Positions 22,591 to 51,273 are shown, numbered from the stretch's first letter. The stretch is 64,000 bases of DNA from Candidatus Falkowbacteria bacterium (GCA_003514005.1 DOSJ01000004.1:101533-165532), one strand, 5' to 3'. Made by a program: numbers and translations. Notes: a model not told the origin generated them from the letters alone.

Positions 22591-22675
22591 AAAAATTCTA
22601 AATTATAAGGTCTAATTTCTAATATTTTAAATCATTAATAGATTAGAAATTATAATTTAGATACTTAGAAATTAT
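22591..22675. repeat. hairpin repeat, family ttctaaattataa/gtctaatttctaa (copy 1 of 4, degenerate)
   Basis: Inverted arms aaattctaaattataaggtctaatttctaat / attagaaattataatttagatacttagaaatt. The same words occur at 27463, 48685 and 50478. Confidence 0.7.
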
Positions 22676-22737
22676 TTTTACAATCATTATCTAGAATAAT
22701 TATAGCATATCTATAAAAAATGTCAATATAAAAATTA

Positions 22738-22836
22738 GACAATATTGCATATGCAAATGCTTAATATATTGCAATATTGTCAACGTAATCACGGAAAATG
22801 ATATAAAATGCCTGGTAAAATACTTGACAATATTGC
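22738..22836. promoter_or_regulatory. three GACAATATTGC(A) operator-like boxes
   Basis: gacaatattgca 22738-22749, inverted copy tgcaatattgtc 22770-22781, and gacaatattgc 22826-22836 overlapping the -35 of the plus-strand promoter. They lie between the divergent TrmB gene and the non-coding locus. Confidence 0.5.
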
Positions 22837-22852
22837 TATTCTGTGATATACT
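22824..22852 (+). promoter_or_regulatory. near-consensus sigma70-type promoter
   Basis: TTGACA (22824-22829), 17-nt spacer ending TGa, TATACT (22847-22852). Confidence 0.6.
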
Positions 22853-22858
22853 GGTTAA

Positions 22859-23808
22859 TCAAGCTAAGAAACGGAGAATTTGTCAAATTGGTAAGAAGTT
22901 AAAAATTGCACATTAGAAAAAAAACAATATATTTCAAGAACTTATCGGCGGAGCTTTGAGTGGCGTAAATTATCGGAGAGAGAAAAGATGATTTCGTCCA
23001 AGCGAAACAGGTAAGGTTTTGGAATTACTAGCTAGAGATGCTTCTTTGGTCTCACGAGAGAAGAGAGCAAAGAAGAACTTTATCTGGTAAGGATACAGAT
23101 CATTACAATTTAATACTCTGGAGAGAGACAAGTGATTTTCGATTTTCGATTGGCGATTTTCGATTTAGTTTAACAGTGATTGGTTTCTCTTCATTAAATT
23201 AGTGAATAGAAATTGGTTGCTGTTTTTTAAAACTAAAAAATGATCAAAAATCTGAAGAGGAGAGAGATGCTTCCTTTTCTGAACTGCGGGTTTGCCCGTA
23301 GATTGGATAGGGAATGATAACAAAAATTATTCAGGGAAAGAAAATCATGTCAATCGTCCCAAAAGAATAATACAATATTCTCTTCAAATTTTTGTTCTTT
23401 TTAAAAAAATTAACTGCTTTGGGAAATTTCGCCAAAATGAAGTCTCGACCATGCTTGGAGAGTTCTTCCCCCGAAAAAATGCTTTGCATTCTCGGGGTAA
23501 AATTGGAGAGAGTAGATTTCTTGAAGTAATTATAACTAATCAAGTTCGACCGCGTAAAGATGCTGTGCATCCGCGCGGAAATGTGCCGAGCCCTGTGGGA
23601 TTTGTCTGGTTTCGTTTCGAACCGGAACTGATAAGTTCTGCAATTTTCAAGTAAGTGAGTGCATCTGTCCCGCGGAAACGCGAGGCAGGCCGCTGAAAGA
23701 AGGCTACGGACGATCGATATCTTATCAAAGAGATCGACTGCGCGTGAAGGATTGAACCCCCTTCGCGTTCAGAAATTTCTCTGGTAGAGAAAGAATTTTT
23801 TTAAACAA
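22859..23808 (+). ncRNA. ~950-nt promoter-to-terminator locus without a credible long ORF (micro-ORFs plus structured GC-rich 3' half); class unknown
   Basis: Bounded by the promoter at 22824 and the stem-loop/T-run at 23783-23808. Contains four GGAGAGAG boxes, covarying hairpins, a CGCG-GAAA-CGCG tetraloop hairpin (23671-23682) and a local GC content well above its surroundings. Confidence 0.4.
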
Positions 23809-23834
23809 AAAAACCTCCGTATTAGGCGGAGGTT
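23801..23834 (-). terminator. intrinsic terminator of the 88-aa gene
   Basis: aacctccg-tattagg-cggaggtt hairpin followed on the minus strand by a T-run (forward aaacaaaaaaa). Confidence 0.7.
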
Positions 23835-23848
23835 AAATAGTAAGGTAT

Positions 23849-24115
23849 TTATTTTTTGATGTTAACAGTATAAGGATTTAAACCAAGATGTACTTCGATA
23901 TTGGAAATGCGTTGTTCAAAGCGATCGTGGGCAGCCATGTTTGAAACGAAAGAATGTTCGATATTATCTAATTTATGCATGACCGCATCAACAGCCGACA
24001 AGACCGAGTCAAATTTTTGATTTAATTCATCCCTGGTTGCAAAATCTTTTAAGTCATCTTTTAATGCTATTTTATTGAATTGTTCTGGAGTAAGTGACAT
24101 ATATTTAATAATCAT
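23849..24115 (-). CDS. small coiled-coil protein (88 aa), hypothetical
   Basis: Track ORF with heptad-like composition and its own terminator. The start may be the internal MSLTPEQF. Confidence 0.5.
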   Translation of the reverse strand: MIIKYMSLTPEQFNKIALKDDLKDFATRDELNQKFDSVLSAVDAVMHKLDNIEHSFVSNMAAHDRFEQRISNIEVHLGLNPYTVNIKK

Positions 24116-24260
24116 TTTTTATAAATATAGTATAGCAACCAAACAATTATATTTCAATAGCGATTTTTATTAGGAATAATCAAATCAGTTGGAATATTTT
24201 TGCGGGGAAAGATTTTGCCCATAAAAATGTCCTAACTATTTTGGAGAGAGAAACTAGTCG

Positions 24261-24289
24261 TTGGATGGACTTCGACAATTGAATATACT
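24261..24289 (+). promoter_or_regulatory. putative promoter TTGGAT-N17-TATACT
   Basis: ttggat 24261-24266 and tatact 24284-24289. The same -10 hexamer occurs in the promoters at 22847 and 25228. Confidence 0.4.
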
Positions 24290-24299
24290 TATTGTTGAC

Positions 24300-24357
24300 T
24301 TTTAATCACCAATCAAAATTGTTTTTATATCAATGTAGTTTTGATTGGTGATTAAAA
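24300..24357 (+). promoter_or_regulatory. perfect 19-bp inverted repeat in the leader of the small-protein operon
   Basis: ttttaatcaccaatcaaaa (24300-24318) / ttttgattggtgattaaaa (24339-24357), with a 20-nt loop. Confidence 0.6.
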
Positions 24358-24406
24358 AACAAATAAGACCACGCTTCCGAGGGTTGATATCGGAGAGGGA
24401 GATGAA

Positions 24407-24616: not shown

Positions 24617-24626
24617 GGAGAAGAAA

Positions 24627-24929: not shown

Positions 24930-24981
24930 TTAGTTCTCGGGTTTAAGTAATCCTAAATAAATATTAAGGTTCAATTTTTTT

Positions 24982-25015
24982 GGAAGTTTTTTTAAAAAAC
25001 TTCCACTCTTTTTAG
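24982..25015 (+). terminator. intrinsic terminator
   Basis: ggaagttttt-ttaa-aaaaacttcc hairpin followed by actcttttt. Confidence 0.55.
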
Positions 25016-26513: not shown

Positions 26514-26903
26514 ATGTTAGCCAAAGAAGCAAAACAGAGGATTATTAACAAGTTTAAGATCCACAAGAACGACACCGGTTCATCCCAGGTGCAGATTGCT
26601 ATTTTAACAGCGGAAATCGAGGAATTATCAGAACACTTGAAGATCCACAAGCACGATCATTCATCACGTCGAGGGTTACTTAAAAAAGTTGGAGAAAGAC
26701 GCCGTTTGTTGAAATATTTGCAAAAAGAAGACGAGAATTCATTCATGGATATTGCGAAAAAACTTAAGCTTAAAATCGCTAAAAAAATGATTGAAGAAGA
26801 AGATGAAAAGAAACGGATTGAGGCCGAGATGCTTGCAAATGAACAATTAAAATTAAAAGACAGTGAGGAAGAGGAAGAAGTGGAAGAGGTTAAGGAGGAT
26901 TAA
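26514..26903 (+). CDS. rpsO: 30S ribosomal protein S15 with ~40-aa acidic C-terminal extension
   Basis: NDTGSSQVQIAILTAEIEELSEHLKIHKHDHSSRRGLLKKVGERRRLLKYL aligns with E. coli S15. The tail is ...EEEDEKKRIEAEM...DSEEEEEVEEVKED. Confidence 0.95.
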   Translation: MLAKEAKQRIINKFKIHKNDTGSSQVQIAILTAEIEELSEHLKIHKHDHSSRRGLLKKVGERRRLLKYLQKEDENSFMDIAKKLKLKIAKKMIEEEDEKKRIEAEMLANEQLKLKDSEEEEEVEEVKED

Positions 26904-26906: not shown

Positions 26907-26937
26907 GTGTCGAATGACGAATGTCGAGTGTCGAATA
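26907..26937. repeat. gtcgaat-word repeat (intergenic copy)
   Basis: gtgtcgaatgacgaatgtcgagtgtcgaata. The same words occur inside yebC at 31718-31756. Confidence 0.7.
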
Positions 26938-27453: not shown

Positions 27454-27462
27454 TAATGCAAA

Positions 27463-27531
27463 AAATTTCTAAATTATAATGTCTAATTTCTAAATTCTAT
27501 TTTAGAAATTAGACATTATAATTTAGAAATT
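27463..27531. repeat. hairpin repeat, ttctaaattataatgtctaatttctaa family (copy 2; ~31-bp perfect stem)
   Basis: aaatttctaaattataatgtctaatttctaaa / tttagaaattagacattataatttagaaatt. Confidence 0.85.
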
Positions 27532-27617
27532 ATTTTATTAAAATATGGCTTGGCCATGAGATAAATAGTGCTGTGAGTAAGCTCATAGTCCTGTAATTTC
27601 ATTGCCAAGCAGAACTA

Positions 27618-27691
27618 AGTTCAAAGTTGGAAAGTTTAAAGTTATAAAGTTATTAATATGCTTTATGCTTTATAACTTTAAACTTTGTACT
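27618..27691. repeat. hairpin repeat, ataaagtt/aactttat word family (copy 1)
   Basis: agttcaaagttggaaagtttaaagttataaagttatt / atgctttataactttaaactttgtact, immediately upstream of the pnp start. Confidence 0.8.
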
Positions 27692-30001: not shown

Positions 30002-30035
30002 AAAAAAACACCGGAAATTTTCCGGTGTTTTTTTG
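30002..30035. terminator. bidirectional intrinsic terminator between pnp and pgi/pmi
   Basis: aaaaaaacaccggaaa-tt-ttccggtgttttttt, with A-run and T-run on either side. Confidence 0.8.
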
Positions 30036-31306: not shown

Positions 31307-32020
31307 ATGTCAGGACATTCAAAATGGGCGACAATTAAACGAAAAAAGGAGGTTACGGACTCTAAACGCGGAGCCGTATTTACAAAATTGGGAAATATTA
31401 TCAGTATCGCGGCCAGGGAAAAAGGCGGCGATATTGAGACGAATTTTTCTTTGCGCATGGCAGTTGAAAAAGCCAAAGCCGCGAATATGCCAAAAGAAAA
31501 TATCGAGCGCGCGATCAAGCGCGGTACGGGCGAAGGTGGCGGAGAGCAGATTGTTGAATTGATTTATGAAGGAATCGGACCGGCTAATTCGCAGTTTATT
31601 GTAAAAGTTTTGACTGATAATAAAAACCGCAGCGCCGCGTCCGTGCGCCATGCTTTTACAAAATATGGCGGATCGCTTGGGACTGTGATGTGGAATTTTG
31701 AGCAGAAAGGAGTGATTCGAGTGTCGAGTGTCGAATTTCGAATTTCGAATGACGAAGATGAGCTAGAGTTGATTGAAGCAGGCGCTGACGATATTTTAAA
31801 AGAAGAGGAGGGAGTAACTATTTATACAAAGCCGGAGAATTTGCAGAAGGTTAAGAAGTTTTTGGATGAGAAAAAAATTAATACAGAATCTGCAGAAATT
31901 GAGTATATTGCGAAAGACGAGGTTGAGATTAGCGGGGAAGATAAAGAAAAGATTGAAAAATTTATTGATGAGTTGGATGGCATTGAAGACGTTTCGGATT
32001 ATTATAATAATGTATTGTGA
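31307..32020 (+). CDS. yebC: YebC/PmpR family DNA-binding transcriptional regulator
   Basis: MSGHSKWATIKRKKEVTDSKRGAVFTKL is the canonical N-terminus. The track start 31274 adds 11 non-homologous codons. Confidence 0.9.
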   Translation: MSGHSKWATIKRKKEVTDSKRGAVFTKLGNIISIAAREKGGDIETNFSLRMAVEKAKAANMPKENIERAIKRGTGEGGGEQIVELIYEGIGPANSQFIVKVLTDNKNRSAASVRHAFTKYGGSLGTVMWNFEQKGVIRVSSVEFRISNDEDELELIEAGADDILKEEEGVTIYTKPENLQKVKKFLDEKKINTESAEIEYIAKDEVEISGEDKEKIEKFIDELDGIEDVSDYYNNVL

Positions 32021-32025
32021 TTTTA

Positions 32026-32118
32026 GTAGGTAGCAGTAAGCCTGTAGCCTGTAGCTCGTAGCAGGTAGCAGGTAGCTTTTTAGAATGTAAATAATTGCTA
32101 AACGCTACAGGCTATAAG
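32026..32118. repeat. hairpin/word repeat gtagc(a/c)(g/t)
   Basis: agtaggtagcagtaagcctgtagcctgtagctcgtagcaggtagcaggtagc ... gctaaacgctacaggctataag. Confidence 0.7.
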
Positions 32119-32128: not shown

Positions 32129-32617
32129 ATGAATAACATAATTTTAGGCATTGATCCCGGTATTGCCGATACTGGTTGGGGCGTAATCCAGGTAGAAAAA
32201 AATGGCAGTTTAAAATGCCTTGGTTATGGCACGATAAAGACCAAGGCAAATACGGATTTGTTCAAGAGATTGGAAATAATAAATTTAGAGCTTAAAACAT
32301 TAATCGATAAATATAAGCCGGATTTGGCGGCGGTGGAGGAATTGTTTTTTTGCAATAACGCCAAAACGGCGCTCGTCGTCGGTCAAGCGCGCGGAGTCGT
32401 GCTTTTGACAATCCGTCAAAGCGAGGTATCGTTTGTCGAATTTACGCCTCTGCAGGTAAAACAGGCAGTATCGACATATGGTCGCGCCAGTAAATTACAG
32501 ATTCAGAAAATGGTAAAATTAATTTTGAATCTAAAAGAACTTCCGCGTCCAGACGACGCGGCAGATGCGCTCGCGATTGCGATATGCGCGGTTAATAGTT
32601 TTAAGTATAAAGTATAA
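32129..32617 (+). CDS. ruvC: crossover junction endodeoxyribonuclease RuvC
   Basis: ILGIDPGIADTGWGVI, AVEELFF and DAADALAIAIC are RuvC catalytic motifs. Confidence 0.92.
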   Translation: MNNIILGIDPGIADTGWGVIQVEKNGSLKCLGYGTIKTKANTDLFKRLEIINLELKTLIDKYKPDLAAVEELFFCNNAKTALVVGQARGVVLLTIRQSEVSFVEFTPLQVKQAVSTYGRASKLQIQKMVKLILNLKELPRPDDAADALAIAICAVNSFKYKV

Positions 32618-32709
32618 AGTTAAAAGTTATAAAGTTATTATTAAAAAAGTTTAAGCTTTATAACTTTTAACTTAATACTTTATAACTTTACACTTTATAA
32701 CTTTAAACT
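32598..32709. repeat. hairpin repeat, ataaagtt/aactttat word family (copy 2); left arm overlaps the ruvC 3' end
   Basis: agttttaagtataaagtataaagttaaaagttataaagttatt / aagtttaagctttataacttttaacttaatactttataactttacactttataactttaaact. Confidence 0.8.
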
Positions 32710-32717: not shown

Positions 32718-34181
32718 ATGTCTAAAAAATTAAAAATAGTATCAATCGCATCTGAAGTTGCTCCGTTCTCAAAGACCGGCGGACTAGCTGATGTTGCTCG
32801 CAGTTTGCCCAAGGCACTAAAACGTTTGGGTCATGATGTAATCGTGATTACGCCAATGTACGGCAAGATTATTGATAAGAAAAAAAACGATTTAAAATTG
32901 ATTTTTTCTGACGTTAAAGTATATCTAAATTCAACAGAAACGGTGCAAGTCAATTTTTGGAAAGGCTACTTAATGGAAGGTTTGCCGATATATTTTATTG
33001 AAAACAAAAAATATTTTTCGCAAAGAAAAAGTATTTACGGTTCGACACATGAGAACGCGCGCTTTTTAATTTTTGATGTTTCTGCTCTGAAACTGATTTC
33101 GCTTTTGAAATACGAAGCTGATATTGTTCACTGTCATGATTGGCAGACCGGACTTATTCCTTTTTATTTAAAAACCGATTTTCGTTATTCCAAAACGCTT
33201 AGCAAAGCGAAAACTATTTTTACTATTCATAATTTGGTTTTTCAATTTGGTAGGAATTGGTGGGAAGTACCACAAGATAAAAAAGATTTTGGACGCAAAC
33301 GCTTGCCGCATATTTCTGACCCGGATGTTGAATATTTGAATTTTGTAAAAAGGGCGATTCTTTCGGCGGATATAATCAATACTGTCAGTGAGCAGTATCG
33401 CGAAGAGATTATGACCAAGAATTTTGGGCAAGATTTGCACCGGATCTTAAAAAATCGCGAAGGTCGTTTGTTTGGTATTGTTAATGGCATAGATTATAAA
33501 GCGTATAATCCGCAAAATGATCCGGCGCTTATTAGTAATTTTACGCACAAAAAAGTTCATCGTAAAAAACTTAACAAAGAATATTTACAGAAAAAATTCG
33601 GTTTGCCAATCAATCGTGATATTCCCTTGATTTGCGCGACATCACGCGTTGCCTACCAAAAAGGAACAGAATTGATTATCAAAATTTTTGAACATTTATC
33701 CAGTATCAACGCACAATTCATTATAATGGGTGATGGTGACAAAGGTTATCTTAGTAAATTAAAAAAAATTAAACAAAATTATCCAAAAAAATTAGCTTTG
33801 CTTTCTTTTTCAGATAATCATAAAGATGAAACATTGCTCTATGCCGGATCTGATTTTTTTCTATTACCATCCCATCATGAGCCGTGCGGCTTAAATCAGA
33901 TGATTGCCATGCGTTATGGTGCGGTACCGATAGTTAGAAAAGTTGGAGGACTTCACGATACAGTTAAAAATTATAATGCGGAAAAAAATACAGGTACCGG
34001 TTTTGTTTTTGAAAAATTTAATGAGATTTTTTTATACGAGGCGATAATGCGTGCGTTGGAACTGCGGAAAAATTCAAAAGCTTTTCGCGATATGGTTGTG
34101 CGGATTATGCAAGAGTCAAATTCTTGGGAAATTCCCGCGAAGAAATATTTGGCGCTTTTTAAGAAGGCGATGAGAGGATAG
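32718..34181 (+). CDS. glgA: glycogen/starch synthase (GT5), copy 1
   Basis: N-terminal SEVAPFSKTGGLADV, HCHDWQTG and EPCGLNQMIAMRYG. Confidence 0.9.
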   Translation: MSKKLKIVSIASEVAPFSKTGGLADVARSLPKALKRLGHDVIVITPMYGKIIDKKKNDLKLIFSDVKVYLNSTETVQVNFWKGYLMEGLPIYFIENKKYFSQRKSIYGSTHENARFLIFDVSALKLISLLKYEADIVHCHDWQTGLIPFYLKTDFRYSKTLSKAKTIFTIHNLVFQFGRNWWEVPQDKKDFGRKRLPHISDPDVEYLNFVKRAILSADIINTVSEQYREEIMTKNFGQDLHRILKNREGRLFGIVNGIDYKAYNPQNDPALISNFTHKKVHRKKLNKEYLQKKFGLPINRDIPLICATSRVAYQKGTELIIKIFEHLSSINAQFIIMGDGDKGYLSKLKKIKQNYPKKLALLSFSDNHKDETLLYAGSDFFLLPSHHEPCGLNQMIAMRYGAVPIVRKVGGLHDTVKNYNAEKNTGTGFVFEKFNEIFLYEAIMRALELRKNSKAFRDMVVRIMQESNSWEIPAKKYLALFKKAMRG

Positions 34182-34255
34182 AAGACGAGAAGTAAGAAGT
34201 TAGAAGTAAGAAGGATTTAAAATTTTTCTTACTTCTAACTTTTTACTTCTAACTT
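34181..34255. repeat. hairpin/word repeat agaagtaag
   Basis: gaagacgagaagtaagaagttagaagtaagaagg / ttcttacttctaactttttacttctaactt. Confidence 0.8.
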
Positions 34256-35428: not shown

Positions 35429-35553
35429 TATAATTCGAATACTACAAATGACATTCAAATACTATAAAAATAATTTAAAATACGTTCGTTTGTTATGCGC
35501 TCTGGTCTATCAAACAGTACGACACAAATATAGATTTGCAATAACTTAAAATT

Positions 35554-36573
35554 ATGAACAAAATTCTTGATCTATTTGATGAAGAAAAGGTAAAAGTATT
35601 GTTTAAAGAAAAAATATTGCCGTTTTATCCGAATTTTTGTGATATTAAAAAAATTGATATCAAGGCGTATAAAAAACAGATTTGGGAAACTACTTATCAT
35701 GTTGTCTTGGAATTTAATACCAGTTTCAAAACCAAAAAAGGCAAGATTAAAAAAATGCCGATTGTCTGTTCGGCGCATTCAAACGAGCCAAGAGAAAATT
35801 TTTATATTGCCTTGTCTTATTTGTGGGAGCATAATTTTTCCGGACCTTTCTTTTCGGTTCCGCATCCGCTTTTTTATTCCGATTATTATAGGGGCGTATT
35901 TTATCGTGGTGTAGCCGGCAACACGCTTTATCATCACATAAAGAAAAATAACCGCTCCGAAATTGAAGCAATCATTCCACTTACGGCAAAATGGTTTGCA
36001 AAACTTCACAATCTTTCGGTAAATGGTACGCCGAATTTTAATTTGGAAAATAGCCGAATTGAAACGGCGCTACCCGGCATAAAGCAGATATTGGCGCGTG
36101 TTCAAGTGGTTTATCCGGAGTATTATGATATTTATCACAAAATATACAAGAAATTGGACGAAAATGAGAAAAAATTTTTTGCATCAACGAAAAAAAAATG
36201 GTTGGTGCACGGTGATGCGCATCCGGAAAATATAATCAGCATGAGCAAGCGAAAAATTGCCGCGATTGATTTTGCCGATCTTTGTCTTTCGGACTACGCG
36301 CGCGATATCGGATCATTTACGCAGCAGCTAGATTATATGTGCGGACGAAAAATCGGTGATAGTGATTTTACAAAAAAAATAAAAGAATTATTTTTAAAAA
36401 TTTATTTTGAAAATTTTAAAAATGGACAACAAGCAGGCATTGATGATCGGATAAAAAATTATTATAATTGGACTGCCATGCGCACAGCAACGTATTTTTT
36501 GACCAGATACAATCCGGATCCGAGCCGAGCCGAGCCATTGATTGAGGCGGTTGCTCATGATTTAAGATTTTAG
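35554..36573 (+). CDS. APH/choline-kinase-fold phosphotransferase
   Basis: LVHGDAHPENII (HGDxxxxN catalytic loop) and IDFAD (DFG-equivalent). Confidence 0.7.
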   Translation: MNKILDLFDEEKVKVLFKEKILPFYPNFCDIKKIDIKAYKKQIWETTYHVVLEFNTSFKTKKGKIKKMPIVCSAHSNEPRENFYIALSYLWEHNFSGPFFSVPHPLFYSDYYRGVFYRGVAGNTLYHHIKKNNRSEIEAIIPLTAKWFAKLHNLSVNGTPNFNLENSRIETALPGIKQILARVQVVYPEYYDIYHKIYKKLDENEKKFFASTKKKWLVHGDAHPENIISMSKRKIAAIDFADLCLSDYARDIGSFTQQLDYMCGRKIGDSDFTKKIKELFLKIYFENFKNGQQAGIDDRIKNYYNWTAMRTATYFLTRYNPDPSRAEPLIEAVAHDLRF

Positions 36574-36630
36574 ATTTTTGATTTATGATTTTAAATTAAA
36601 TCCTAAATCAAAAATCCTAAATCATAAATT
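36560..36630. repeat. hairpin/word repeat gattt(t/a)tga / tcataaatc
   Basis: tttaagattttagatttttgatttatgatttta / aaatcctaaatcaaaaatcctaaatcataaatt. The left arm overlaps the stop of the kinase gene. Confidence 0.8.
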
Positions 36631-36638
36631 ATATTAGT

Positions 36639-40248: not shown

Positions 40249-40422
40249 ATTAGGGAATAGGGATGGGAAATTAGGTACTTAGGTACTTAGGGCATAGGAG
40301 TTGGAAATTTAAGATTTATATAAAAAAATAAACTCAATTATATTTGAGTTTATTTTTTTAGATAAAATGATGATACCATACCCCCTATGCCCTAAGTACC
40401 TAAGTACCTAATTCCCTTATTA
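40249..40422. repeat. aggtacttagg-family long inverted repeat clamping a bidirectional terminator; right arm overlaps the trmD stop
   Basis: Left arm ttagggaatagggatgggaaattaggtacttaggtacttagggcatagg and right arm ccccctatgccctaagtacctaagtacctaattcccttatt. They enclose aaaaaaataaactcaa-ttatat-ttgagtttattttttt (40322-40360). Confidence 0.85.
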
Positions 40423-41111
40423 CTCCGTCTCCATTTCTCAATCTCCGCATGATTGCCAGATAACAAAACCTCCGGCACCTTATGTTCATGGCTATTGCTA
40501 TCAATAAAAACCTCCGGTCTTGTGTACTGAGGATATTCGAGCTCGCCCGGAATAGAATGCGATTCGTCTTGCGCGCTTTGTTCGTTGCCGAGTACGCCGG
40601 GCAATAGTCGCGTGATTGAATCAACCAATGCCATTGCGCCGATTTCACCGCCGGTCAAAACATAATCGCCGATTGAGATTTCTTCGTCAATGAATTCCGT
40701 TATTCTTTCATCTACGCCCTCATAGCGGCCGCAGACTAGAGTGATGTTTTCTAAGTTCGCGTATTCCTTTGCTTTTTGTTGATTCCATTTTTGGCCTTTG
40801 GCAGATAATAAAATAATTTTTGTATTAGGTATTAAGTATTTAGTATTGTGCAATTCAGGCTGTATATTATTGCTTAATACTTGATACTTAATACTTGATA
40901 CTGTTTTGTATAAAATATCGACTTTCATAACCATTCCAGCGCCGCCGCCGTATGGTGTGTCATCGACCGTTTTATGTTTGTCCGTTGTATAGTCACGCAG
41001 ATTGATAATATTTATTTTTATATTCCCTTGTTCTTGCGCGCGCTTAAGAATGCTCTCGTTGAAATAAGAGTTGAAAATTTCGGGGAAGATTGTGATTATG
41101 TTAAAAGTCAT
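40392..41111 (-). CDS. trmD: tRNA (guanine37-N1)-methyltransferase
   Basis: TIFPEIF, DDTPYGGGAGMVM, VCGRYEGVDERI, IGDYVLTGGE and LLSGNHAEIEKWR. Start taken at MTFNIITIFPE. The track start 41126 lies inside the MITE terminal repeat. Confidence 0.92.
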   Translation of the reverse strand: MTFNIITIFPEIFNSYFNESILKRAQEQGNIKINIINLRDYTTDKHKTVDDTPYGGGAGMVMKVDILYKTVSSIKYQVLSNNIQPELHNTKYLIPNTKIILLSAKGQKWNQQKAKEYANLENITLVCGRYEGVDERITEFIDEEISIGDYVLTGGEIGAMALVDSITRLLPGVLGNEQSAQDESHSIPGELEYPQYTRPEVFIDSNSHEHKVPEVLLSGNHAEIEKWRRSNKGIRYLGT

Positions 41112-41120
41112 ATATGCATC

Positions 41121-41255
41121 TGTCATTCCCGCGAAGGCGGGAATCTTGGTTTAAAAATAATAAAATATTTTAATTTTTTGAAGGTTGTAAAATCATTTCA
41201 AGAAAATAAATTCGGTGATTTGTTTACCGAGATTCCCGCTTTCGCGGGAATGACA
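41121..41255. mobile_element. MITE-like element, copy 1 (135 bp) with 26-bp hairpin-containing terminal inverted repeats
   Basis: tgtcattcccgcgaaggcgggaatct ... agattcccgctttcgcgggaatgaca. No ORF. Lies between khpA and trmD. Confidence 0.65.
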
Positions 41256-41355
41256 AAAGTGTTTATTCGTAGATTAGCATTTTTATTTTTATTTGACTAT
41301 CAAAAAGCCACGAACAAAATGTTGTGGCTTTTTGAATATCTGATTTTGTTTTAGA

Positions 41356-41688
41356 TTAAATTCTTAAATCATCAACACTTGAAGTATCGATATCAGCAGT
41401 TGGACGTTGTTCTCTGCGTGCCGGTCTTTGTGATCCTTCCGGTTCGTTGATTTTTAAGTTTACTCGGGCGTTATTTTTTGCACCTACGATTTTAAGCAAA
41501 GTGCGGATAGCCTGAGCGGTTTGACCGCGGCGGCCGATAACATAACCCATGTCTTCGGGACTGATGGAAAGGGTCAAAAGAACACCTCTTTCATCAACTG
41601 TTCTGTCAACAGAAACGCCTTCCGGACGTCCGACAATCGACTTTACGACGTACTCTAAAAAATCTTTGTCTTGTACATTTTCTACCAT
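41356..41688 (-). CDS. khpA: KH-domain RNA-binding protein (KhpA/UPF0109) with C-terminal extension
   Basis: SVDRTVDERGVLLTLSISPEDMGYVIGRRGQTAQAIRTLLK matches the KhpA pattern. Extra ~30-aa tail. Confidence 0.85.
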   Translation of the reverse strand: MVENVQDKDFLEYVVKSIVGRPEGVSVDRTVDERGVLLTLSISPEDMGYVIGRRGQTAQAIRTLLKIVGAKNNARVNLKINEPEGSQRPARREQRPTADIDTSSVDDLRI

Positions 41689-41828
41689 AGTTTTTTGCTT
41701 TGGGATTTATGGCTTAATAGCCATAGACCTAAAGCGTACTTAATAATTAATTCATCCTGTTCGTTTTGCTATGCAGGAATATTATGTGTATATTATAACA
41801 CAAATATAATATTTGTCAATAGCCTGTT

Positions 41829-42224
41829 TTATTTGGCTTTTTCAGCAGTTTCTTCTGTATTTTCTTTTTTATCCTCAGTTTCGGTTTTTGCTTTTATATC
41901 GGCTAAACGCTTTTCGTTCTCTTCTTTTAAACGCTTTATCACCTCTTCTTTGGTATTTTTACCGGTTTTTGAGGCTGTAACCTTGTCACCTTTGATTATT
42001 TCTTTTTGTAATAAAAGGTTATTAACGGTCGGGGACATTCCAGCACCATTTTTCAACCAATATTCAATTCGGTCTTTTTTTGCGGTTAATTCCTTGGTAA
42101 ATGGGTTATAAGCACCTAATATTTCCAAGGCGCGGCCATATGGATCTTTGGTTTTTTCGGAAATAATCAGACGATAAGTCGGTTTTTTCTTTTTCCCGAT
42201 TCTTGATAATCTAATAGTTAGCAT
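41829..42224 (-). CDS. rpsP: 30S ribosomal protein S16 with Lys/Glu-rich extension
   Basis: MLTIRLSRIGKKKKPTYRLII...GAYNP...IEYWLKNGA aligns with E. coli S16. ~50-aa charged tail. Confidence 0.95.
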   Translation of the reverse strand: MLTIRLSRIGKKKKPTYRLIISEKTKDPYGRALEILGAYNPFTKELTAKKDRIEYWLKNGAGMSPTVNNLLLQKEIIKGDKVTASKTGKNTKEEVIKRLKEENEKRLADIKAKTETEDKKENTEETAEKAK

Positions 42225-42284
42225 AGTTTATGTAAAAATATCACGTTTATCTTTATGATTAGCGTTTATTTTTATTAAATCTCT

Positions 42285-42326
42285 CCGCGGATTTATGCGG
42301 ATATAAACGCGGATAGACGCGGATAT
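42285..42326. repeat. four GCGGAT(A/T) direct repeats upstream of rpsP
   Basis: ccgcggatttatgcggatataaacgcggatagacgcggatat. Repeat starts are spaced 10, 12 and 10 bp apart. Confidence 0.6.
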
Positions 42327-42692
42327 TTTTTGGAATAATCTTTATTTTATTTAAAAAAAATTTTTGCAGCAATAAAACAAGAAGAGCAAGAGCAAAAATT
42401 AAAAAAGATATTCAAAAATACCTTTTTAACCCTTTTGTTTTACATTGATAATATAGCAATTAGAGCGGGAGAAGTCAAGGGGATAGCTTCTCGATGCATG
42501 AGGCAAGTATAAAATGACTATTTTTTGACATCAATTATATTATTTGCTATTGTTGTAGTAACAATAGGAAAAAACTAGTCTAAATTGTTATTAACTTTTT
42601 AAATTCTTATTTTATTTTTAAAAATTCGATTTAAGCTTATTCATTTTTAGGCTTGATGAATCTGATATTTAAAAATAAAAACATAAAAAATT

Positions 42693-44062: not shown

Positions 44063-45298
44063 ATGACAAAAATAGACGAAAAAGAAATTAGCCGAGATGA
44101 TTTCAGCAAGATGCTGGATGATTATAAATTCAAGGCGCCACAAGTCGGTGAATTGGTTACCGGCGAAGTTATTTCCGCTTCCAAGGCTGAAGTAAAGCTA
44201 GATATCAACGGAATCATGACCGGCGTAGTGCGCGGTCCAGAGCTATACGAAGAAGACGAAGAATATGCAGGATTAAAACCCGGAGAAACCGTAGAGGCTA
44301 CCGTATTGGAAATGGAAAATGAGAATGGTGAAATTGAGCTTTCATTTAAGTATGCCGGACAAGAAAAAGCTTGGGAAGGCTTGCGTGAAGCTGAGAAAAG
44401 CCGTTCGGTTATCAAGGTAAAAGTAATTGATGCGAACAAAGGCGGACTTTTGGTAAAATATCGTCAGATCTCCGGGTTCTTGCCAGTATCGCAATTGGCG
44501 CCGGAAAATTATCCGCGCATCAATGGCGGTGACAAATCAAAGATTTTGGATAAACTGCGCTCTTTTGCCGGACAAGAGTTTGAAGTAAAGGTTATGACTT
44601 TGAATGAAAAAGAAGACAAGATAATTTTCTCGGAAAAAGACGCATGGAGCGAACGCCAGAAAGATACTATTTCTAAATATCAAGTCGGGGCAATTGTTGA
44701 AGGCGCTATTACCGCCATTACCGATTTCGGCGTATTTATCAGCTTTGGCGAGAACTTGGAAGGACTAATCCATATCTCTGAGCTGGCTTGGCAAAGGATT
44801 GATGATCCGGCAGAGCTATACAAAGTCGGCGATAAAATCCAGGCCGAAGTAATCAGCTTGAGCGATTCCAAAATATTTTTGAGCGCGAAAAAACTGATCA
44901 AAGATCCATGGGTGGAAGTAAGTCAGAAATATAAAATCGGCCAGATTGTTAATGGTACCATTATCAAAGTTAACCCTTTTGGGCTATTTATTAAGCTCGA
45001 TGAAGATATTCATGGTTTGGCGCATATCAGCCAGATCGATTTGGCGCCAAAAGAAAAGATCAATGACAAATTCAAATCTGCGGATAAATTGAATTTTGAG
45101 ATCGTATCAATCGAAGCCAAAGAGCATCGTTTAGGCTTGGCTTATTCCGAGGAAATCGCGAAGATGAAAGAAGGCGAAGTGCGGGTTAAGAAAGGCGCGG
45201 CTGTTAAAGAAGAAGTTAAAACAGAGGTTGAAGATGAAGCGAAAGAAGCGAAGAGTGAGAAGAAGAGTAAGAAAAAGAAAGAGGAAGCAGTTGATTAG
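44063..45298 (+). CDS. rpsA: 30S ribosomal protein S1 (four S1 domains) with Lys/Glu tail
   Basis: Repeated S1 OB-fold units (GELVTGEVIS..., VIKVKVIDANKGGLLV, GAIVEGAITAITDFGVFISF, GQIVNGTIIKVNPFGLFIKL). Start taken at MTKIDEKE. Confidence 0.88.
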   Translation: MTKIDEKEISRDDFSKMLDDYKFKAPQVGELVTGEVISASKAEVKLDINGIMTGVVRGPELYEEDEEYAGLKPGETVEATVLEMENENGEIELSFKYAGQEKAWEGLREAEKSRSVIKVKVIDANKGGLLVKYRQISGFLPVSQLAPENYPRINGGDKSKILDKLRSFAGQEFEVKVMTLNEKEDKIIFSEKDAWSERQKDTISKYQVGAIVEGAITAITDFGVFISFGENLEGLIHISELAWQRIDDPAELYKVGDKIQAEVISLSDSKIFLSAKKLIKDPWVEVSQKYKIGQIVNGTIIKVNPFGLFIKLDEDIHGLAHISQIDLAPKEKINDKFKSADKLNFEIVSIEAKEHRLGLAYSEEIAKMKEGEVRVKKGAAVKEEVKTEVEDEAKEAKSEKKSKKKKEEAVD

Positions 45299-45477
45299 TA
45301 ATTAGTTAATTAGGGGCGATATAAAAACCGTTTTATCTGTATAAAACGGTTTTTTATTGAAAAAAATGTATTTGCCAAGCTTAAAAACGTGTTGTATACT
45401 GTATTAAGTACATTATTTAATAATTAGGTATTATAGATAATTCTTTGGGTAAATTTTTAAACGTTTTTTCCTTCACT

Positions 45478-45645
45478 TGTCATTCCCGCGAAGGCGGGAA
45501 TCTTGGTTTATTAATAACAAAATATTTTTATTGCAGGTTTGTTATGAAACTATTTTATCATATTTTTCTTTTGTTATTATAACACCGAGATTCCCGATCA
45601 TTTAGTATTAATTCCCTGCGGGGCCATGGAGTGTCGGGAATGACA
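45478..45645. mobile_element. MITE-like element, copy 2 (168 bp), right terminal repeat interrupted
   Basis: The left 33 nt are identical to copy 1 (tgtcattcccgcgaaggcgggaatcttggttta). The right end is agattcccg[39-nt insertion]cgggaatgaca. Lies upstream of ftsH. Confidence 0.65.
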
Positions 45646-47520: not shown

Positions 47521-47523
47521 GAT

Positions 47524-47628
47524 ATTAGGGTATAGGTACTTAGGTAATTAGGTTTTTTAAAACGTCTTGATAATACATCAAGACGTTTTTTGTTTTACAC
47601 CCCTTATTCCCTAAGTACCTATTTTCCT
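47524..47628. repeat. aggtacttagg-family inverted repeat clamping a terminator hairpin
   Basis: attagggtataggtacttaggtaattagg / caccccttattccctaagtacctattttcc, around aaaacgtcttga-taataca-tcaagacgtttttt (47558-47592). Confidence 0.75.
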
Positions 47629-48679: not shown

Positions 48680-48684
48680 TTATT

Positions 48685-48763
48685 AATGTCTAATTTCTAA
48701 ATTATAATTACTAAAAAAGCATTAATAAAAAATTTAGTTATTATAATTTAGAAATTAGAAATT
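48685..48763. repeat. hairpin repeat, ttctaaattataa family (copy 3), upstream of the pilB-like gene
   Basis: aatgtctaatttctaaattataattactaaa / tttagttattataatttagaaattagaaattt. Confidence 0.8.
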
Positions 48764-48772
48764 TAGAGATTT

Positions 48773-50476
48773 ATGTCCGATATCCAATCAATTGAAGATT
48801 TGATCGCTTCCTCAAAGGGAGGCGGTTTTGATGATGAGAGCGCTTTGGGAAAATTTCAGGCAAAGCAAAAAGAGATCAATGTGAAAGAAGTAGAAAGATT
48901 AACTGAACAGAACGCGGTAAATTTGGGCGTGTCTTATATAAGTCTTTTTGGTTTTCCGATTAGTCCAGAGGCCCTGTCTCTGATCACCGAGCAAGACGCG
49001 CGCCAGTTTAATGTTGTTTGTTTTTTTTATGACGGCCAAAAAATCCGTTTAGGCGCGCTTGAACCGCATAGCGAGGCAGTAGTAAACAAACTCGAAGAGC
49101 TTTGCGCAACCTTTTTCTGCGAAGGCGAAACTTATTTGATATCCAAAAATAGTTTGGAATACGCGATAAGGCTGTATAACTCGATTCCAAAGGTTAGAGT
49201 AATTCCGCGCGGCGTAGAATTAACAGAAGATGATTTGAATAAATTCAGTGAAAAATTTTCCAGTTTTGCGGATTTGCAAAAAGAGATCAATCAGGCAAAA
49301 GTAACCGATATCGTAACCATGGTTATGGCGGCATCTATCAAGCTGGACGCTTCCGATATTCATATCGAAGCAGAAGAAGACGGCATAAAAGTGCGTTTTC
49401 GCGTTGACGGCGTTTTGCATGACGCTTCGGTAATCAGTAAAGATTTATGGAAAAAGATAATTTCACGCCTTAAAGTTATCGCCAAAGTAAAGATAAATAT
49501 TGCCGATAAGCCGCAAGACGGGCGCATGTCTATTATTACCGCGCATGATCGGATTGATATTCGCGTTTCTTTTTTGCCGACCAATTTCGGCGAAAGTGTG
49601 GTTATGCGTATTTTGAAAGCCAGCTCAGTCGGCTTGGCTTTTAATGATCTGGGCATCCGTGATCGCGCGTTTGAACAACTAAGGCGCGAAGTCGAGCGTC
49701 CGAACGGCATGATTATCACAACCGGTCCGACCGGTTCAGGGAAAACCACTACCTTGTATGCGATTTTAAAGAAATTAAATAATCAAGAAACAAAAATAAT
49801 CACGATCGAGGATCCGATTGAGTATCAGCTGGAAGGCGTTAATCAATCGCAGATTAGCGAGAAATACACTTTTGCTCAAGGTCTGCGCTCTATCGTGCGC
49901 CAGGATCCGGATATTATTATGGTTGGCGAAATTCGCGATTTGGAAACCGCCGAGATTGCAATCCAGGCTTCTTTGACCGGGCACCTGGTATTGTCCACTA
50001 TCCATACAAACGATGCCGCTGGCACTGTGCCGCGTTTCATATCCATGGGAACAAAGCCTTTTCTTTTGGCACCGGCTTTGAACGCGATGATCGGTCAGCG
50101 TCTGGTCCGCCGTATTTGTGAAAAATGCAAAGTTGTCGACGAATTGGATGAAGAAAAAAGAAAAAGAGCTTTGGATTATATCAAGGAAATTCCCGCGGCT
50201 GAGCGGGGCGAATTGGATTTTGACAAAATCGTATTTTATAAAGGCGCCGGCTGCGAGGCTTGCCAAGGCATAGGCTACAAGGGTCGGATCGGCATATATG
50301 AGATTGTTGTGGTTGACGAAGATATGGAAAAACTGATCTTGTCCGGAGCAGTTAATGAGTATGATATGCGCGCCGCGGCTGCGAAAAAAGGCACGCTTTC
50401 AATGGCACAAGACGGAATGCTCAAAGTTTTGGACGGAATAACTTCGGTTGAGGAAGTGTTTAGAGTTGCGGAGTAA
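48773..50476 (+). CDS. type II/IV secretion / type IV pilus assembly ATPase (GspE/PilB family)
   Basis: GPTGSGKTTT, IMVGEIRD, GHLVLSTIHTNDA, and the tetracysteine CEKC...CEAC. Confidence 0.92.
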   Translation: MSDIQSIEDLIASSKGGGFDDESALGKFQAKQKEINVKEVERLTEQNAVNLGVSYISLFGFPISPEALSLITEQDARQFNVVCFFYDGQKIRLGALEPHSEAVVNKLEELCATFFCEGETYLISKNSLEYAIRLYNSIPKVRVIPRGVELTEDDLNKFSEKFSSFADLQKEINQAKVTDIVTMVMAASIKLDASDIHIEAEEDGIKVRFRVDGVLHDASVISKDLWKKIISRLKVIAKVKINIADKPQDGRMSIITAHDRIDIRVSFLPTNFGESVVMRILKASSVGLAFNDLGIRDRAFEQLRREVERPNGMIITTGPTGSGKTTTLYAILKKLNNQETKIITIEDPIEYQLEGVNQSQISEKYTFAQGLRSIVRQDPDIIMVGEIRDLETAEIAIQASLTGHLVLSTIHTNDAAGTVPRFISMGTKPFLLAPALNAMIGQRLVRRICEKCKVVDELDEEKRKRALDYIKEIPAAERGELDFDKIVFYKGAGCEACQGIGYKGRIGIYEIVVVDEDMEKLILSGAVNEYDMRAAAAKKGTLSMAQDGMLKVLDGITSVEEVFRVAE

Positions 50477-50477
50477 A

Positions 50478-50549
50478 AAATTTCTAAATTATAATGTCTA
50501 ATTCCTAAACAATAAAATTTAGAAATTAAACATTATAATTTAGAAATTT
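50478..50549. repeat. hairpin repeat, ttctaaattataa family (copy 4), downstream of the pilB-like gene
   Basis: aaatttctaaattataatgtctaattcctaaa / atttagaaattaaacattataatttagaaattt. Confidence 0.85.
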
Positions 50550-50614
50550 TATATTTTAGGTATAAATATTAAGTATCACATGTATTATAAAAATATTGCA
50601 TGTAACGCAAAACT

Positions 50615-51184
50615 ATGATTAACAAGATTTTCATTCAAAAACTAAAGAAAGAACATGAGGAGAGCAATAACGAGAGAAGACAGATAATCAGTTTGGCAAA
50701 TATCGTTTTGCACGATTCCAAACGGGTGATATTTTCCTTGCATCGTGGCGATATGACTAAGGCCGAAGAAAGTTTAGTGGAGATTGAAAAAATATTAATG
50801 AAACTTGAAAAAAACTTTGGTTATGAACGCGTTTATTCCGAAGGCGCGTACAAAGCGGCGGTTGAAGAGTATGCCGAAGCCAAGACTTTGCATATGGTAA
50901 TTAACGGGAAAAAGATTGATAAATTCAGTGGCATCAAGCTGGATTACGAAACATATTTGGGCGGAATCTGCGACCTGACAGGCGAGCTTGTCCGCCGCGC
51001 AACAAACGAAGCCGCAAGCGGAAATCGAGATGAAGTAACGCGCGTAAAAAAAATTATCAACGATATCATGGCTGAACTAATCGAATTCAATATGTCCGGT
51101 TATCTACGAACCAAGTATGATCAAGCGCGCGGCAATCTGCGCAAGATAGAACAGATGGATTACGATTTGAAAATAAGAGGATAG
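50615..51184 (+). CDS. translin-family-like protein (tentative)
   Basis: All-helical 189-aa protein. YLGGICDLTGELVRRA resembles the translin/TRAX Y..G..D..GEL.R motif (from memory). Confidence 0.5.
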   Translation: MINKIFIQKLKKEHEESNNERRQIISLANIVLHDSKRVIFSLHRGDMTKAEESLVEIEKILMKLEKNFGYERVYSEGAYKAAVEEYAEAKTLHMVINGKKIDKFSGIKLDYETYLGGICDLTGELVRRATNEAASGNRDEVTRVKKIINDIMAELIEFNMSGYLRTKYDQARGNLRKIEQMDYDLKIRG

Positions 51185-51273
51185 ATTAGGGCGTAGGTAC
51201 TTAGGGAATAGGGGGATTTAAATTCTAATGCGATTATTAATAATCCTAAGTACCTAAGTACCCAAGTACCTAA
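51184..51273. repeat. aggtacttagg-family inverted repeat
   Basis: gattagggcgtaggtacttagggaataggggga / aatcctaagtacctaagtacccaagtacctaa. Confidence 0.75.

Follow-up and report, generated by a model that had tools for sequence, protein, structure and literature searches.

In cyanobacteria, short tandemly repeated repetitive (STRR) sequences consist of 7-bp tandem repeats that fall into several families. They can be found as hairpins in the space between two genes, hupS and hupL for example, and no function is known for them (PMC2670836). A passage of the same paper that cites Jackman & Mulligan 1995 gives transcript stability and translational coupling as proposed roles (PMC2670836). The origin and function of these repeats have gone unexplained since 1990. 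We examined a 64,000-nt stretch of Candidatus Falkowbacteria DNA from the Rifle aquifer (the window) that contains families of long hairpins built from short tandem words. Repeats of this kind are known, though unexplained, and here they occur in a phylum new for them; the closest known kind is the cyanobacterial STRR. Bacteria of the candidate phyla radiation are usually described as streamlined and repeat-poor, and genomes of the Patescibacteria type are generally about 1 Mb in size. The repeats are notable for their density in a streamlined genome, for vocabularies that different genomes and phyla share, and for a hairpin within a gene at which synonymous sites are conserved. The reading that we favor, with a probability of roughly 0.55, is that they are dispersed palindromic repeats of the STRR type, made of heptamer words. 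In this reading they spread at the DNA level, and as parts of operons they are transcribed into stem-loops.

Ogata et al. in 2000 reportedly described palindromic elements of Rickettsia (RPEs) that lie between genes and also in frame in essential genes at tolerant surface sites. Heptamer arrays have been found in Beggiatoaceae, cyanobacteria, and Bacteroidetes, where relatives have shorter, repeat-free spacers, and their patchy distribution across phyla was taken to suggest horizontal spread by a mechanism that is unknown (MacGregor 2015, PMC4679880). Work cited in one part of that paper reports that CspB binds heptamer repeats with one protein per heptamer (PMC4679880). Cyanobacterial stem-loops at processing sites stabilize nif transcripts (PMC4284476). 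Repetitive extragenic palindromic (REP) sequences are defined by a GTAG/CGTC tag (PMC3733652).

Hairpins of tandem words among core genes

From about 22.5 kb on, the gene content of the window, determined with Pfam, is made up of core genes that lie mainly on the + strand. The order is rpsO, an NYN-domain gene, pnp, pgi, yebC, ruvC, glgA, and a GH57 gene, followed by an APH-type kinase gene, a PHP gene, a glycosyltransferase gene, a second glgA, and trmD-khpA-rpsP on the minus strand, and then by a thioredoxin-like gene, an S1-domain gene, ftsH, a pilB-like ATPase gene, a Translin-family gene, a permease gene, uvrA, and valS. The readable DNA of this genome amounts to 73 kb and comprises the window and a 9-kb extension (locus L358, given in window-equivalent coordinates). 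The relatives of PNPase, GlgA, and TrmD are all Patescibacteria/Candidatus Falkowbacteria, with the best species-level PNPase match being 76% identical; a cyanobacterial origin of the window, first suggested by the heptamers, was rejected on these grounds. The S15 protein, matched exactly, places the window in a contig of 244 kb (DMOD01000015).

An ungapped scan for inverted repeats (score of at least 14) found 17 in the window and none in any of 10 dinucleotide-preserving shuffles. This result and the strongly negative z scores of the folds rule out chance pairing in AT-rich DNA. Folded as RNA, the best-formed spacers reached -24 to -40 kcal/mol with z between -5 and -13, and degraded copies had z of about -3. 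In each hairpin, an array of a 7-nt (sometimes 8-nt) word stands head-to-head with an array of the complementary word, giving an AT-rich helix of 20-35 bp. The tandem arrays that make up the arms are degenerate, and their period is 7 in most cases (AATTTCT, TGTCGAA, GTAGCAG, AGAAGTA, GATTTTA, and GTATTAA in Tandem Repeats Finder, TRF) and 8 in two families (TTAGGTAC and AAAGTTAT). Exact 6-mer self-matches at lags of 7, 14, and 21 numbered 118, 96, and 125 compared to about 32-36 after local shuffling, a 3-4 fold enrichment. The features are listed here by window coordinates, strand, and description.

21839-22582, minus strand: TrmB-like regulator gene, adjoining the family 1 copy at 22591
22591..22686, unstranded: family 1 hairpin (ttctaaattataa/gtctaatttctaa; AATTTCT/AAATTAT/AATGTCT), degraded, upstream of the TrmB-like regulator gene; z -3.1
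26908..26936, + strand: GTCGAAT/GACGAAT direct heptamer array in the spacer between rpsO (S15) and the NYN gene; TRF period 7, 4.1 copies; z +0.8
27460..27535, unstranded: family 1 hairpin between the NYN gene and pnp; 35-nt arms, 34/35 paired, 6-nt loop; -38.4 kcal/mol, z -12.9; flanked by an A-tract and a T-rich tract
27617..27686, unstranded: AAAGTTA/AAAGTTAT word hairpin (ataaagtt) upstream of pnp; 19/19 perfect core; z -5.4
31716..31756, + strand: array of six heptamers (TGTCGAG/TTTCGAA type) inside yebC; surface loop rewritten with its length unchanged
32024..32118, + strand: GTAGCAG/GTAGCCT heptamer array (7 words) in the yebC-ruvC spacer; inverted partner of only 11 nt; z -1.8
32591..32709, unstranded: GTATAAA/AAAGTTA word hairpin (ataaagtt) filling the ruvC-glgA spacer; left arm holds the last ruvC codons and stop; z -5.3
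34181..34255, unstranded: AGAAGTA word hairpin (agaagtaag) filling the glgA-GH57 spacer; perfect 30-bp RNA helix counting 3 G:U; z -9.7
35432..35480, + strand: partial ATTCGAATACTACAAAT/ATTCAAATACTA family copy, left arm only, in the GH57-kinase spacer
36557..36633, unstranded: GATTTTA/GATTTAT word hairpin (gatttatga) filling the kinase-PHP spacer; left arm is the last kinase codons and stop; z -8.0
40249..40421, unstranded: TAGGGAA/TAGGTACT outer hairpin (aggtacttagg); 33-nt arms, 32/33 paired; encloses an ordinary bidirectional terminator at 40315-40366; final 7 codons of trmD, stop included, encoded by the right arm
40822..40901, minus strand: in-frame hairpin of GTATCAA/GTATTAA words inside trmD; encodes VSSIKYQVLS...NTKYLIPNTK
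45289..45313, + strand: array of the 8-mer TAGTTAAT, located at the S1-domain gene's stop; kept in L155
47524..47622, unstranded: TAGGTACT outer hairpin (aggtacttagg) downstream of ftsH; encloses a canonical intrinsic terminator at about 47558-47592; z -7.4
48685..48771, unstranded: family 1 hairpin; fills the spacer that lies upstream of the pilB-like gene; 31-nt arms, 29/31 paired; z -5.7
48773-50476: PilB-like ATPase gene, bracketed by the family 1 copies at 48685 and 50474
50474..50553, unstranded: family 1 hairpin starting at the pilB stop codon; 36-nt arms, 33/36 paired; z -8.4
51184..51273, unstranded: TAGGTACT/TAGGGAA hairpin (aggtacttagg) filling the spacer between the Translin gene and the permease gene; ends 4 nt before the start codon; z -3.0
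61524..61601, + strand: CGATTTN/AAATCGA word hairpin, in frame in a variable loop of valS; inverted-repeat scan, z -3.5
62055..62086, + strand: in-frame array of GATTTGC/GATTTCC inside valS, in the linker that joins the catalytic and anticodon-binding domains; TRF
62622..62654, + strand: in-frame array of AGAAGTT inside valS, in the linker that precedes the C-terminal coiled coil; TRF

The scan and folds recovered the family 1 hairpins that an initial annotation, made from the sequence alone, had placed at 22591, 27463, 48685, and 50478, with the last two bracketing the pilB-like gene as it had said. Its aggtacttagg hairpins at 40249, 47524, and 51184 were present, as were those of ataaagtt (27618 and 32598), agaagtaag (34181), and gatttatga (36560). 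The paired regions recovered span 40266-40416, 47532-47622, and 51184-51273 for aggtacttagg, 27631-27686 and 32606-32709 for ataaagtt, 34188-34250 for agaagtaag, 36557-36632 for gatttatga, and 48685-48763 for the family 1 copy upstream of pilB. By contrast, gtcgaat at 26907 had been taken for a hairpin and proved to be a direct array with no inverted partner, and gtagc at 32026, listed likewise, has an inverted partner of just 11 nt (32024-32076). The gcggata feature at 42285, also called as a hairpin, belongs to a different class. It consists of direct repeats at 42285-42326 with a 10-11-nt period, lies upstream of rpsP (41829-42224, minus strand), is kept in the approximately 90%-identical relative (L155), and looks like an operator or promoter feature rather than a member of the hairpin class. 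The annotation correctly described the arms as short-period tandem repeats that run into the last codons of ruvC, the kinase gene, and trmD. The trmD hairpin (40822-40901), the three valS arrays, the yebC array (31716-31756), and the partial copy at 35432-35480 were additional to its list. Its concern that the repeats might be an assembly artefact or unique to the window can be set aside. Assemblies from ENA, NCBI (GCA_003453605.1, DMOD01000015), and JGI are identical to the window, hairpins included, over 20.4, 20.4, and 12.7 kb, and this agreement without difference rules out an assembly artefact; the same vocabulary also occurs in other genomes.

Word hairpins are found in 10 of the 22 spacers longer than 50 nt between 22.5 and 52.9 kb, and direct arrays in four more. 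None is found in the first 22 kb of the window, which contain a type I restriction-modification (R-M) defence island and a recombinase/tRNA island. The claim that hairpins occupy most intergenic spacers holds to this extent. Word hairpins avoid recently acquired islands. Within the core genes, the repeats fill the space between stop and start codons in tight operons, sometimes supply the stop codon, and sometimes overwrite tolerant loops of essential genes in frame. As read from the sequence, the last approximately 4 codons and the stop of ruvC and the last approximately 5 codons and the stop of the APH-type kinase gene lie inside an array, and TTAGGTAC words spell out the final 7 codons of trmD together with its stop (GIRYLGT*). 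The S15 open reading frame (ORF; 26514-26903) is predicted to encode 129 aa, with about 40 residues past the Pfam S15 domain (7-86), and this tail ends at the GTCGAAT array.

At least 10 words occur in the 73 kb, with four copies of family 1, three of TAGGTACT, three of AGAAGTA, and three to four of the ATAAAGT/AACTTTAT type. The family 1 copies at 27460 and 50474, about 23 kb apart, share 29 identical nt in which four different word variants stand in the same order. In the 9-kb extension, a hairpin of AATAATC lies at 65.3 kb, arrays of AGAAGTA/TTCTAAC follow at 68.4-68.6 kb, and AACTTTAT occurs at 70.5 kb. Thus, as the initial annotation had claimed, families recur at distant loci, including AGAAGTA and AACTTTAT beyond the window. 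Within a hairpin, one arm does not have its word variants in the same order as the other.

The in-gene arrays lie in valS, where all three are in linker or loop regions, in yebC, and in trmD. The trmD hairpin is 80 nt long, and the corresponding loop is about 17 residues shorter in solved TrmD structures. An alignment of 21 TrmD proteins (A1) showed that the insert region is hypervariable across Patescibacteria, with insert types that range from none (P0127) to IKYQVLS...NTKYLIPNTK and to 7-residue periodic peptides such as NLQPTTY in five copies or NMKHATC/NMEHATD/NTQHATH. Peptides with a 7-residue period are expected from a heptanucleotide array read in three frames, and in-frame heptamer arrays that yield such peptides are a route to new protein loops. 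Unrelated TrmD loop inserts were observed in the P0170, P0125, P0128, and P0129 lineages. In five genomes with TrmD proteins that are 70-90% identical, the arms of the hairpin are 83-98% identical at the nucleotide level versus 68-75% for the rest of the gene (89% in the closest pair). Identical amino acids are encoded by identical codons at 18 of 20 and 19 of 20 positions in the arms versus 42-45% elsewhere (Fisher p ~1e-5). The loop of the hairpin varies among the five genomes, and a 26-pair helix is predicted in all five, with most pairs never varying. These comparisons suggest that the arms are either constrained in their nucleotide sequence or repeatedly renewed from the family consensus. 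With its conserved synonymous sites, the hairpin is a candidate functional element within a coding sequence.

Relatives and other genomes

Relatives whose GlgA is 74-79% identical keep the gene order with tiny spacers (L033, L034, and L035; L-numbers denote comparison loci or contigs). The spacers along yebC-ruvC-glgA-next gene measure 108, 100, and 80 nt here versus 27, 15, and 21 nt in L034, 39, 32, and 49 nt in L033, and 10, 15, and 87 nt in L035. The kinase-PHP spacer is 65 nt here versus 7 nt in L035. Such tiny orthologous spacers indicate that the hairpins are additions inside operons of the native chromosome, and the word hairpins were gained in this lineage. Species-level relatives mostly have ordinary terminators with an A-tract, stem, and T-tract, and word hairpins are sporadic, occurring in L009, L010, L035, and a contig of Harrisonbacteria (L016). 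In L035, the 74% relative, we also observed perfect arrays of ACTTTTG (620-651, 4.6 copies) and ATTTGGA (841-904, 9.6 copies) that lie inside a called tsaD-like gene (208-1332, minus strand).

A closer relative from the same sample is about 90% identical and is represented by L032 (given as 89%) and L155. After glgA, it has TAGTTAAT words where the window has AGAAGTA. Between the second glgA and trmD, L155 has a 59-nt plain terminator versus a 165-nt TAGGTACT structure in the window, and the end of its TrmD differs. L155 has ATACGAAT/ACTACAAA hairpins in the trmD-khpA spacer and in the region downstream of the S1 gene (the S1-ftsH spacer of the window), and the window has a CCCGC element at these junctions instead. 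The ATTCGAAT/ACTACAAA family forms full hairpins at two L155 loci and has a partial copy in the non-orthologous GH57-kinase spacer of the window; the copies at these non-orthologous loci share a stretch of about 45 nt that, judged by eye, is about 85% identical. The window and this relative also have pieces in common, namely the words of the right arm before glgA, the TAGTTAAT array that follows the S1 gene, and GCGGATA. The right-arm words of the 32591..32709 hairpin are common to L032 and absent from L033, L034, and L035. At the rewritten yebC loop, L034 has a different heptamer word (GATTTGC/GATTTCC, as in valS at 62055). This comparison of orthologous spacers, proposed in the initial annotation, thus found relatives that are empty or have other words, and one family at non-orthologous loci in the approximately 90% relative, pointing to rapid turnover of words at orthologous junctions between it and the window. 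L155 also has an extra gene of 335 aa between rpsP and the thioredoxin-like gene where the window has a 468-nt spacer (42225-42692).

The contigs of two relatives end in such repeats. In a core stretch of 30 kb, about half of the spacers that are usable contain hairpins that are missing in close relatives, suggesting that repeat dynamics contribute to genome evolution and to contig breaks.

To look beyond close relatives, we used a two-word 20-mer of family 1 in a metagenome scan, which matched at least 118 stretches; this genome's own contigs were not among the matches listed. About 26 of these stretches, among the matches listed, are hairpins of the same word set in unrelated gene contexts, and about three quarters of the matches listed are lone chance matches in AT-rich DNA. 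The viral collection gave only single matches to this 20-mer. A 65.7-kb contig (L113 and L149) contains four hairpins of the family 1 type in 10 kb. Among the fetched loci, family 1 cores bracket ordinary genes at distances like those of insertion sequences (IS), namely pilB here and an ABC ATPase gene in L113. A Falkowbacteria contig identified via rplB (L098) has six word hairpins in 8 kb, and L072 has a GTATAAA-type hairpin resembling the one at 32606 in the window. The TACGAAT vocabulary is found in L016, L035, L040, L110, L155, and the window at 35432. In L016 (Candidatus Harrisonbacteria), at 137-210, 15263-15424, and 16741-16845, we observed a TACGAAT-word hairpin, a perfect 13-copy TGTTTAGC array with an inverted partner, and a CACTAAT-word hairpin.

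A contig of Acidobacteriota (Terriglobia) with 58% G+C (L135, Ga0326728_10007270) contains five long hairpins in 14.6 kb, four of them of heptamer words (hairpins at 2666-2734, 7272-7411, 8100-8197, and 13365-13491). Among the words are CCCCAGT/CCCCAGC, known as STRR1 in cyanobacteria, and AAATGGC, and one hairpin is AT-rich, made of TTCTAAA/TTATAAG, and of the family 1 type. In the viral collection (IMG/VR; loci L238-L357), (ACGAATN)3 arrays occur in more than 120 stretches at least, compared to a handful expected by chance in a back-of-envelope estimate with an assumed collection size. Among the viral-contig matches listed, 161 of 170 ACGAATN arrays are direct and lack a partner. Some IMG/VR contigs with 41-55% G+C, viral by the label of the collection, hold several word hairpins, for example L303 (3649-5995) and L251 (6388-9277). 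Across all the DNA fetched, strong tandem arrays most often have a period of 7. TAGGTACTTAGG, GTAGCAGGTAGC, and GCGGATA were not found in the approximately 1.2 Mb of fetched loci, so not every family is demonstrably widespread. The families recur within the genome, sit at non-orthologous places in close relatives, and draw on a small vocabulary that other genomes also use.

Other elements of the window

The window also contains a second class of repeat, which resembles miniature inverted-repeat transposable elements (MITEs), is 140-170 nt long, and has GTCATTCCCGCGAAGGCGGGAATC termini (41117-41258 and 45488-45645). Two further copies lie past the window end at 64478-64614 and 69019-69100 (L358). 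The termini are about 35 nt long and each has the palindrome ATTCCCGCGAAGGCGGGAAT (GTCATTCCCGCGAAGGCGGGAATCTTGG...), a motif that also occurs in L004, L013, and L087 and at the L032 contig end. The element presumably resembles the dRS3/NIME repeats of Neisseria.

Upstream of the S1-domain gene is a perfect 25-nt inverted repeat with a 66-nt loop (43760-43784/43851-43875) that is not made of tandem words. It is kept in L155, has no Rfam match, and may be a leader structure. At gathering thresholds, Rfam found only two tRNAs in the window, and the hairpins had no match. Ordinary terminators lie at 30002-30034 and 45323-45354. A + strand ORF at 41671-42111 is probably spurious since it is antisense to rpsP.

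The first 22 kb of the window are probably an acquired region. The type I R-M defence island at 1-13.5 kb contains hsdR (4054-7158), hsdS (8759-9928), and hsdM (10270-11832), along with an AAA/OLD-like ATPase and a Dam-like methylase. Between 13.5 and 22 kb there are a large serine recombinase gene (16328-18025) overlapping tRNA-His, an HNH gene, and tRNA-Arg.

Origin of the repeats and comparison with known systems

Copies of the word repeats would, according to the STRR-type reading, spread at the DNA level by copy-and-paste. Copying might proceed through ectopic templated repair, through template switching that is seeded where words share microhomology, or through an enzyme, so far unseen, that recognizes hairpins. 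The arrays would then grow, shrink, and be reshuffled by replication slippage. We propose that arm pairing is kept because both arms draw on the same vocabulary, and that remodeling by slippage leads to the differing order of word variants in the arms and to own arms that match no better than foreign ones. Their position inside operons suggests that the hairpins must be transcribed. The transcribed hairpins would fold into 20-35-bp stem-loops that punctuate polycistronic mRNAs, and these could be barriers to 3' exonucleases, serve as targets of double-strand RNases, or cover the stretch immediately upstream of the following start codon. The A-tract and T-tract of family 1 may make its copies terminators that work in either direction.

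Several results weigh against this reading. Co-evolution of the arms within a hairpin was not found. Complementarity averages 0.80 between own arms versus 0.71 with foreign arms, and the best foreign arm often beats the own arm, so that own-arm pairing is no better than pairing with foreign arms and is a poor fit to a simple element that would transpose as one unit. The arms of two TAGGTACT copies (40249-40421 and 47524-47622) enclose unrelated ordinary intrinsic terminators, which requires nesting or growth in place. G:U versus A:C mismatches showed no clear bias toward pairing in the sense RNA, with small numbers and mixed signals. Covariation in the trmD helix is weak, with changes on both sides in 3 of 26 pairs and most pairs invariant, which suggests that sequence and not pairing alone is conserved in these arms. 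The cognate transposase that the initial annotation thought might exist was not seen in the 73 kb read: no transposase of the RAYT (REP-associated tyrosine transposase)/Y1/HUH, DDE, or IS200/605 type was among the Pfam matches of the scanned ORFs of at least 100 aa (the majority of such ORFs in the window) or among the genes tabulated for the 9-kb extension. The only recombinase is the large serine recombinase next to tRNA-His, in a hairpin-free island. No target-site duplication, a defining feature of MITEs, was found at the flanks of the copies at 27460, 50474, and 48685, where the whole element is the inverted repeat. Finally, the role at the RNA level is one that we infer in its entirety.

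The hairpins might instead be functional RNA elements that are selected locus by locus for processing, stability, or termination, as in the RNA-processing or insulation code that the initial annotation also proposed, with families that reflect recognition by a shared RNase or RNA-binding protein (for example OB-fold, S1, or cold-shock proteins binding about 7 nt each) and not mobility. The stability of the helices and their position inside operons are in keeping with this, as are the copy at 34188, which is a perfect 30-bp helix only with sense-strand G:U pairs, the synonymous sites kept in the trmD arms, and the A-tract and T-tract of family 1, which resemble the bidirectional terminators of relatives. 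Precedents are the stabilization of nif transcripts by stem-loops in cyanobacteria (PMC4284476) and, from work cited in a part of PMC4679880, the binding of one CspB per heptamer. However, the same operons function in relatives as units with 10-50-nt spacers and no hairpins, the junctions in question hold different words, or no words, in the approximately 90% relative, and the arrays overwrite protein loops, which a transcript signal does not need. Mismatches overall are not biased to G:U, and Rfam had no match. We regard selection of this kind as unlikely. Growth purely in place is a doubtful explanation too, and rather an improbable one. It would combine chance 7-nt duplications, slippage, and quasi-palindrome correction that mirrors the arms, with no movement and with words arising by convergence. 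It accounts for the differing order of word variants between arms, for arms built around pre-existing terminators, for a yebC loop rewritten without a change in length and with another word in a relative, for different words at the same spacer in close relatives, and for direct arrays without a partner (26908, 32024, and the bulk of the ACGAATN arrays among the viral matches listed). It does not readily account for the shared order of four variants over 29 nt at 27460 and 50474, for the two-word 20-mer that occurs as hairpins in unrelated contigs, for the 45-nt similarity with L155 at non-orthologous loci, for an AT-rich hairpin of the family 1 type in an Acidobacteriota contig with 58% G+C, or for the absence of hairpins from acquired islands of the same replicon.

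The repeats could also act as platforms on the DNA, either as inverted 7-8-bp sites for nucleoid or regulatory proteins, each word having its factor, or as cruciform supercoil or insulator sites like those of REP and bacterial interspersed mosaic elements (BIMEs). Conservation of sequence rather than pairing in the trmD arms and a vocabulary kept across genomes fit with this, and the GCGGATA array upstream of rpsP suggests that direct-repeat, operator-like sites are in use. Yet more than 10 unrelated words would need as many factors in a type of genome that is presumably about 1 Mb, sites that follow one another every 7 bp do not lie on the same face of the helix, and positions are not kept between close relatives and include coding loops, so that we find this explanation very improbable. 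A wider and speculative view, which we hold to be unlikely, is that there is one cross-phylum class of self-propagating heptamer arrays and hairpins with common vocabularies. It would take in Patescibacteria, Acidobacteriota, the cyanobacterial STRRs, the heptamers of Beggiatoa and Bacteroidetes, and phage-like contigs, would be written by a dedicated mechanism that reiterates or targets heptamers and not by ordinary slippage, and would have some copies, such as the one in trmD with its synonymous sites conserved across Patescibacteria, that were domesticated within essential genes to function as nucleic acid.

Comparison with described systems excluded several kinds of element. The repeats are not CRISPR, as the initial annotation had recognized, since the units are 7-8 nt, contiguous, and without spacers. 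They are not integron attC sites, since there are no RYYYAAC...GTTRRRY cores at the hairpin ends, the flanks are syntenic housekeeping genes, and the sole recombinase is of the serine type. Rho-independent terminators were rejected because the word hairpins are AT-rich, 20-35 bp long, and mostly without a T-tract, with family 1 alone having both an A-tract and a T-tract. DNA uptake sequences (DUS) and uptake signal sequences (USS) were rejected because there are many different tandem words, each at few loci, rather than one high-copy motif of 9-12 nt.

The initial annotation had proposed a diversifying system like REP or MITEs. We did find dispersed palindromic families with turnover, which supports that part of its interpretation, but the REP/RAYT and MITE systems each fail on at least one defining feature. 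Like REP/BIME and REPIN (REP doublets forming hairpins), the word repeats are short extragenic palindromes at gene ends in operons and are species-specific, and the roles proposed for REP/BIME include protection of mRNA 3' ends and termination. Membership in REP and REPIN fails since there is no single consensus or conserved GTAG/CGTC tag; GTAG occurs only in the GTAGCAG array, and family 1 ends are AATTTCTAAATTATAA. The repeats also differ in having tandem-array arms and copies in coding sequence, and no RAYT was seen in the 73 kb. MITEs such as Correia and the Neisseria intergenic mosaic elements (NIME) are likewise non-autonomous dispersed inverted repeats that alter transcript ends, whereas the word hairpins have no termini distinct from the interior and no related full-length IS was found in the DNA read.

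RPEs, as they are said to be, share the combination of in-gene and intergenic palindromes, and an in-frame palindromic insert in a protein-coding gene is present here in trmD. RPEs differ in being of about 100-150 bp with a family consensus in the Rickettsia lineage; here there are arrays of 7-nt words with no sequence relationship to them, and the yebC case is a replacement only, with no insertion. The TAACTGA-type heptamers (PMC4679880) are also mostly intergenic with some over ORF ends or in ORFs, and contigs break at them. They have one dominant word in direct repeats just upstream of start codons, with a single inverted case (PMC4679880), in contrast to the many words, mostly in inverted arrays that span whole spacers, described here.

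Our literature search, which was not exhaustive, found no report of such repeats in Patescibacteria. The resemblance to STRRs is the closest. Both have 7-nt words in several families that are intergenic, often in operons, and form inverted arrays able to fold into hairpins, as the fold z scores bear out for the arrays of complementary words in the window. In both, spacers are highly variable between close relatives and still structured, and the STRR1 word CCCCAGT itself forms hairpins in the Acidobacteriota contig. STRRs were described in (heterocystous) cyanobacteria with words STRR1-3, whereas the repeats described here are in Patescibacteria and have other, AT-rich words. They also differ in the very small genome, the predominance of the hairpin form, arms that run into stop codons, in-frame copies in trmD, valS, and yebC, and a vocabulary that distant genomes share. 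We treat the cyanobacterial host range as the place where STRRs were first described and not as defining of the kind, and their occurrence in Patescibacteria and Acidobacteriota offers small genomes with a Rifle time series as a testing ground for repeats that have long resisted explanation.

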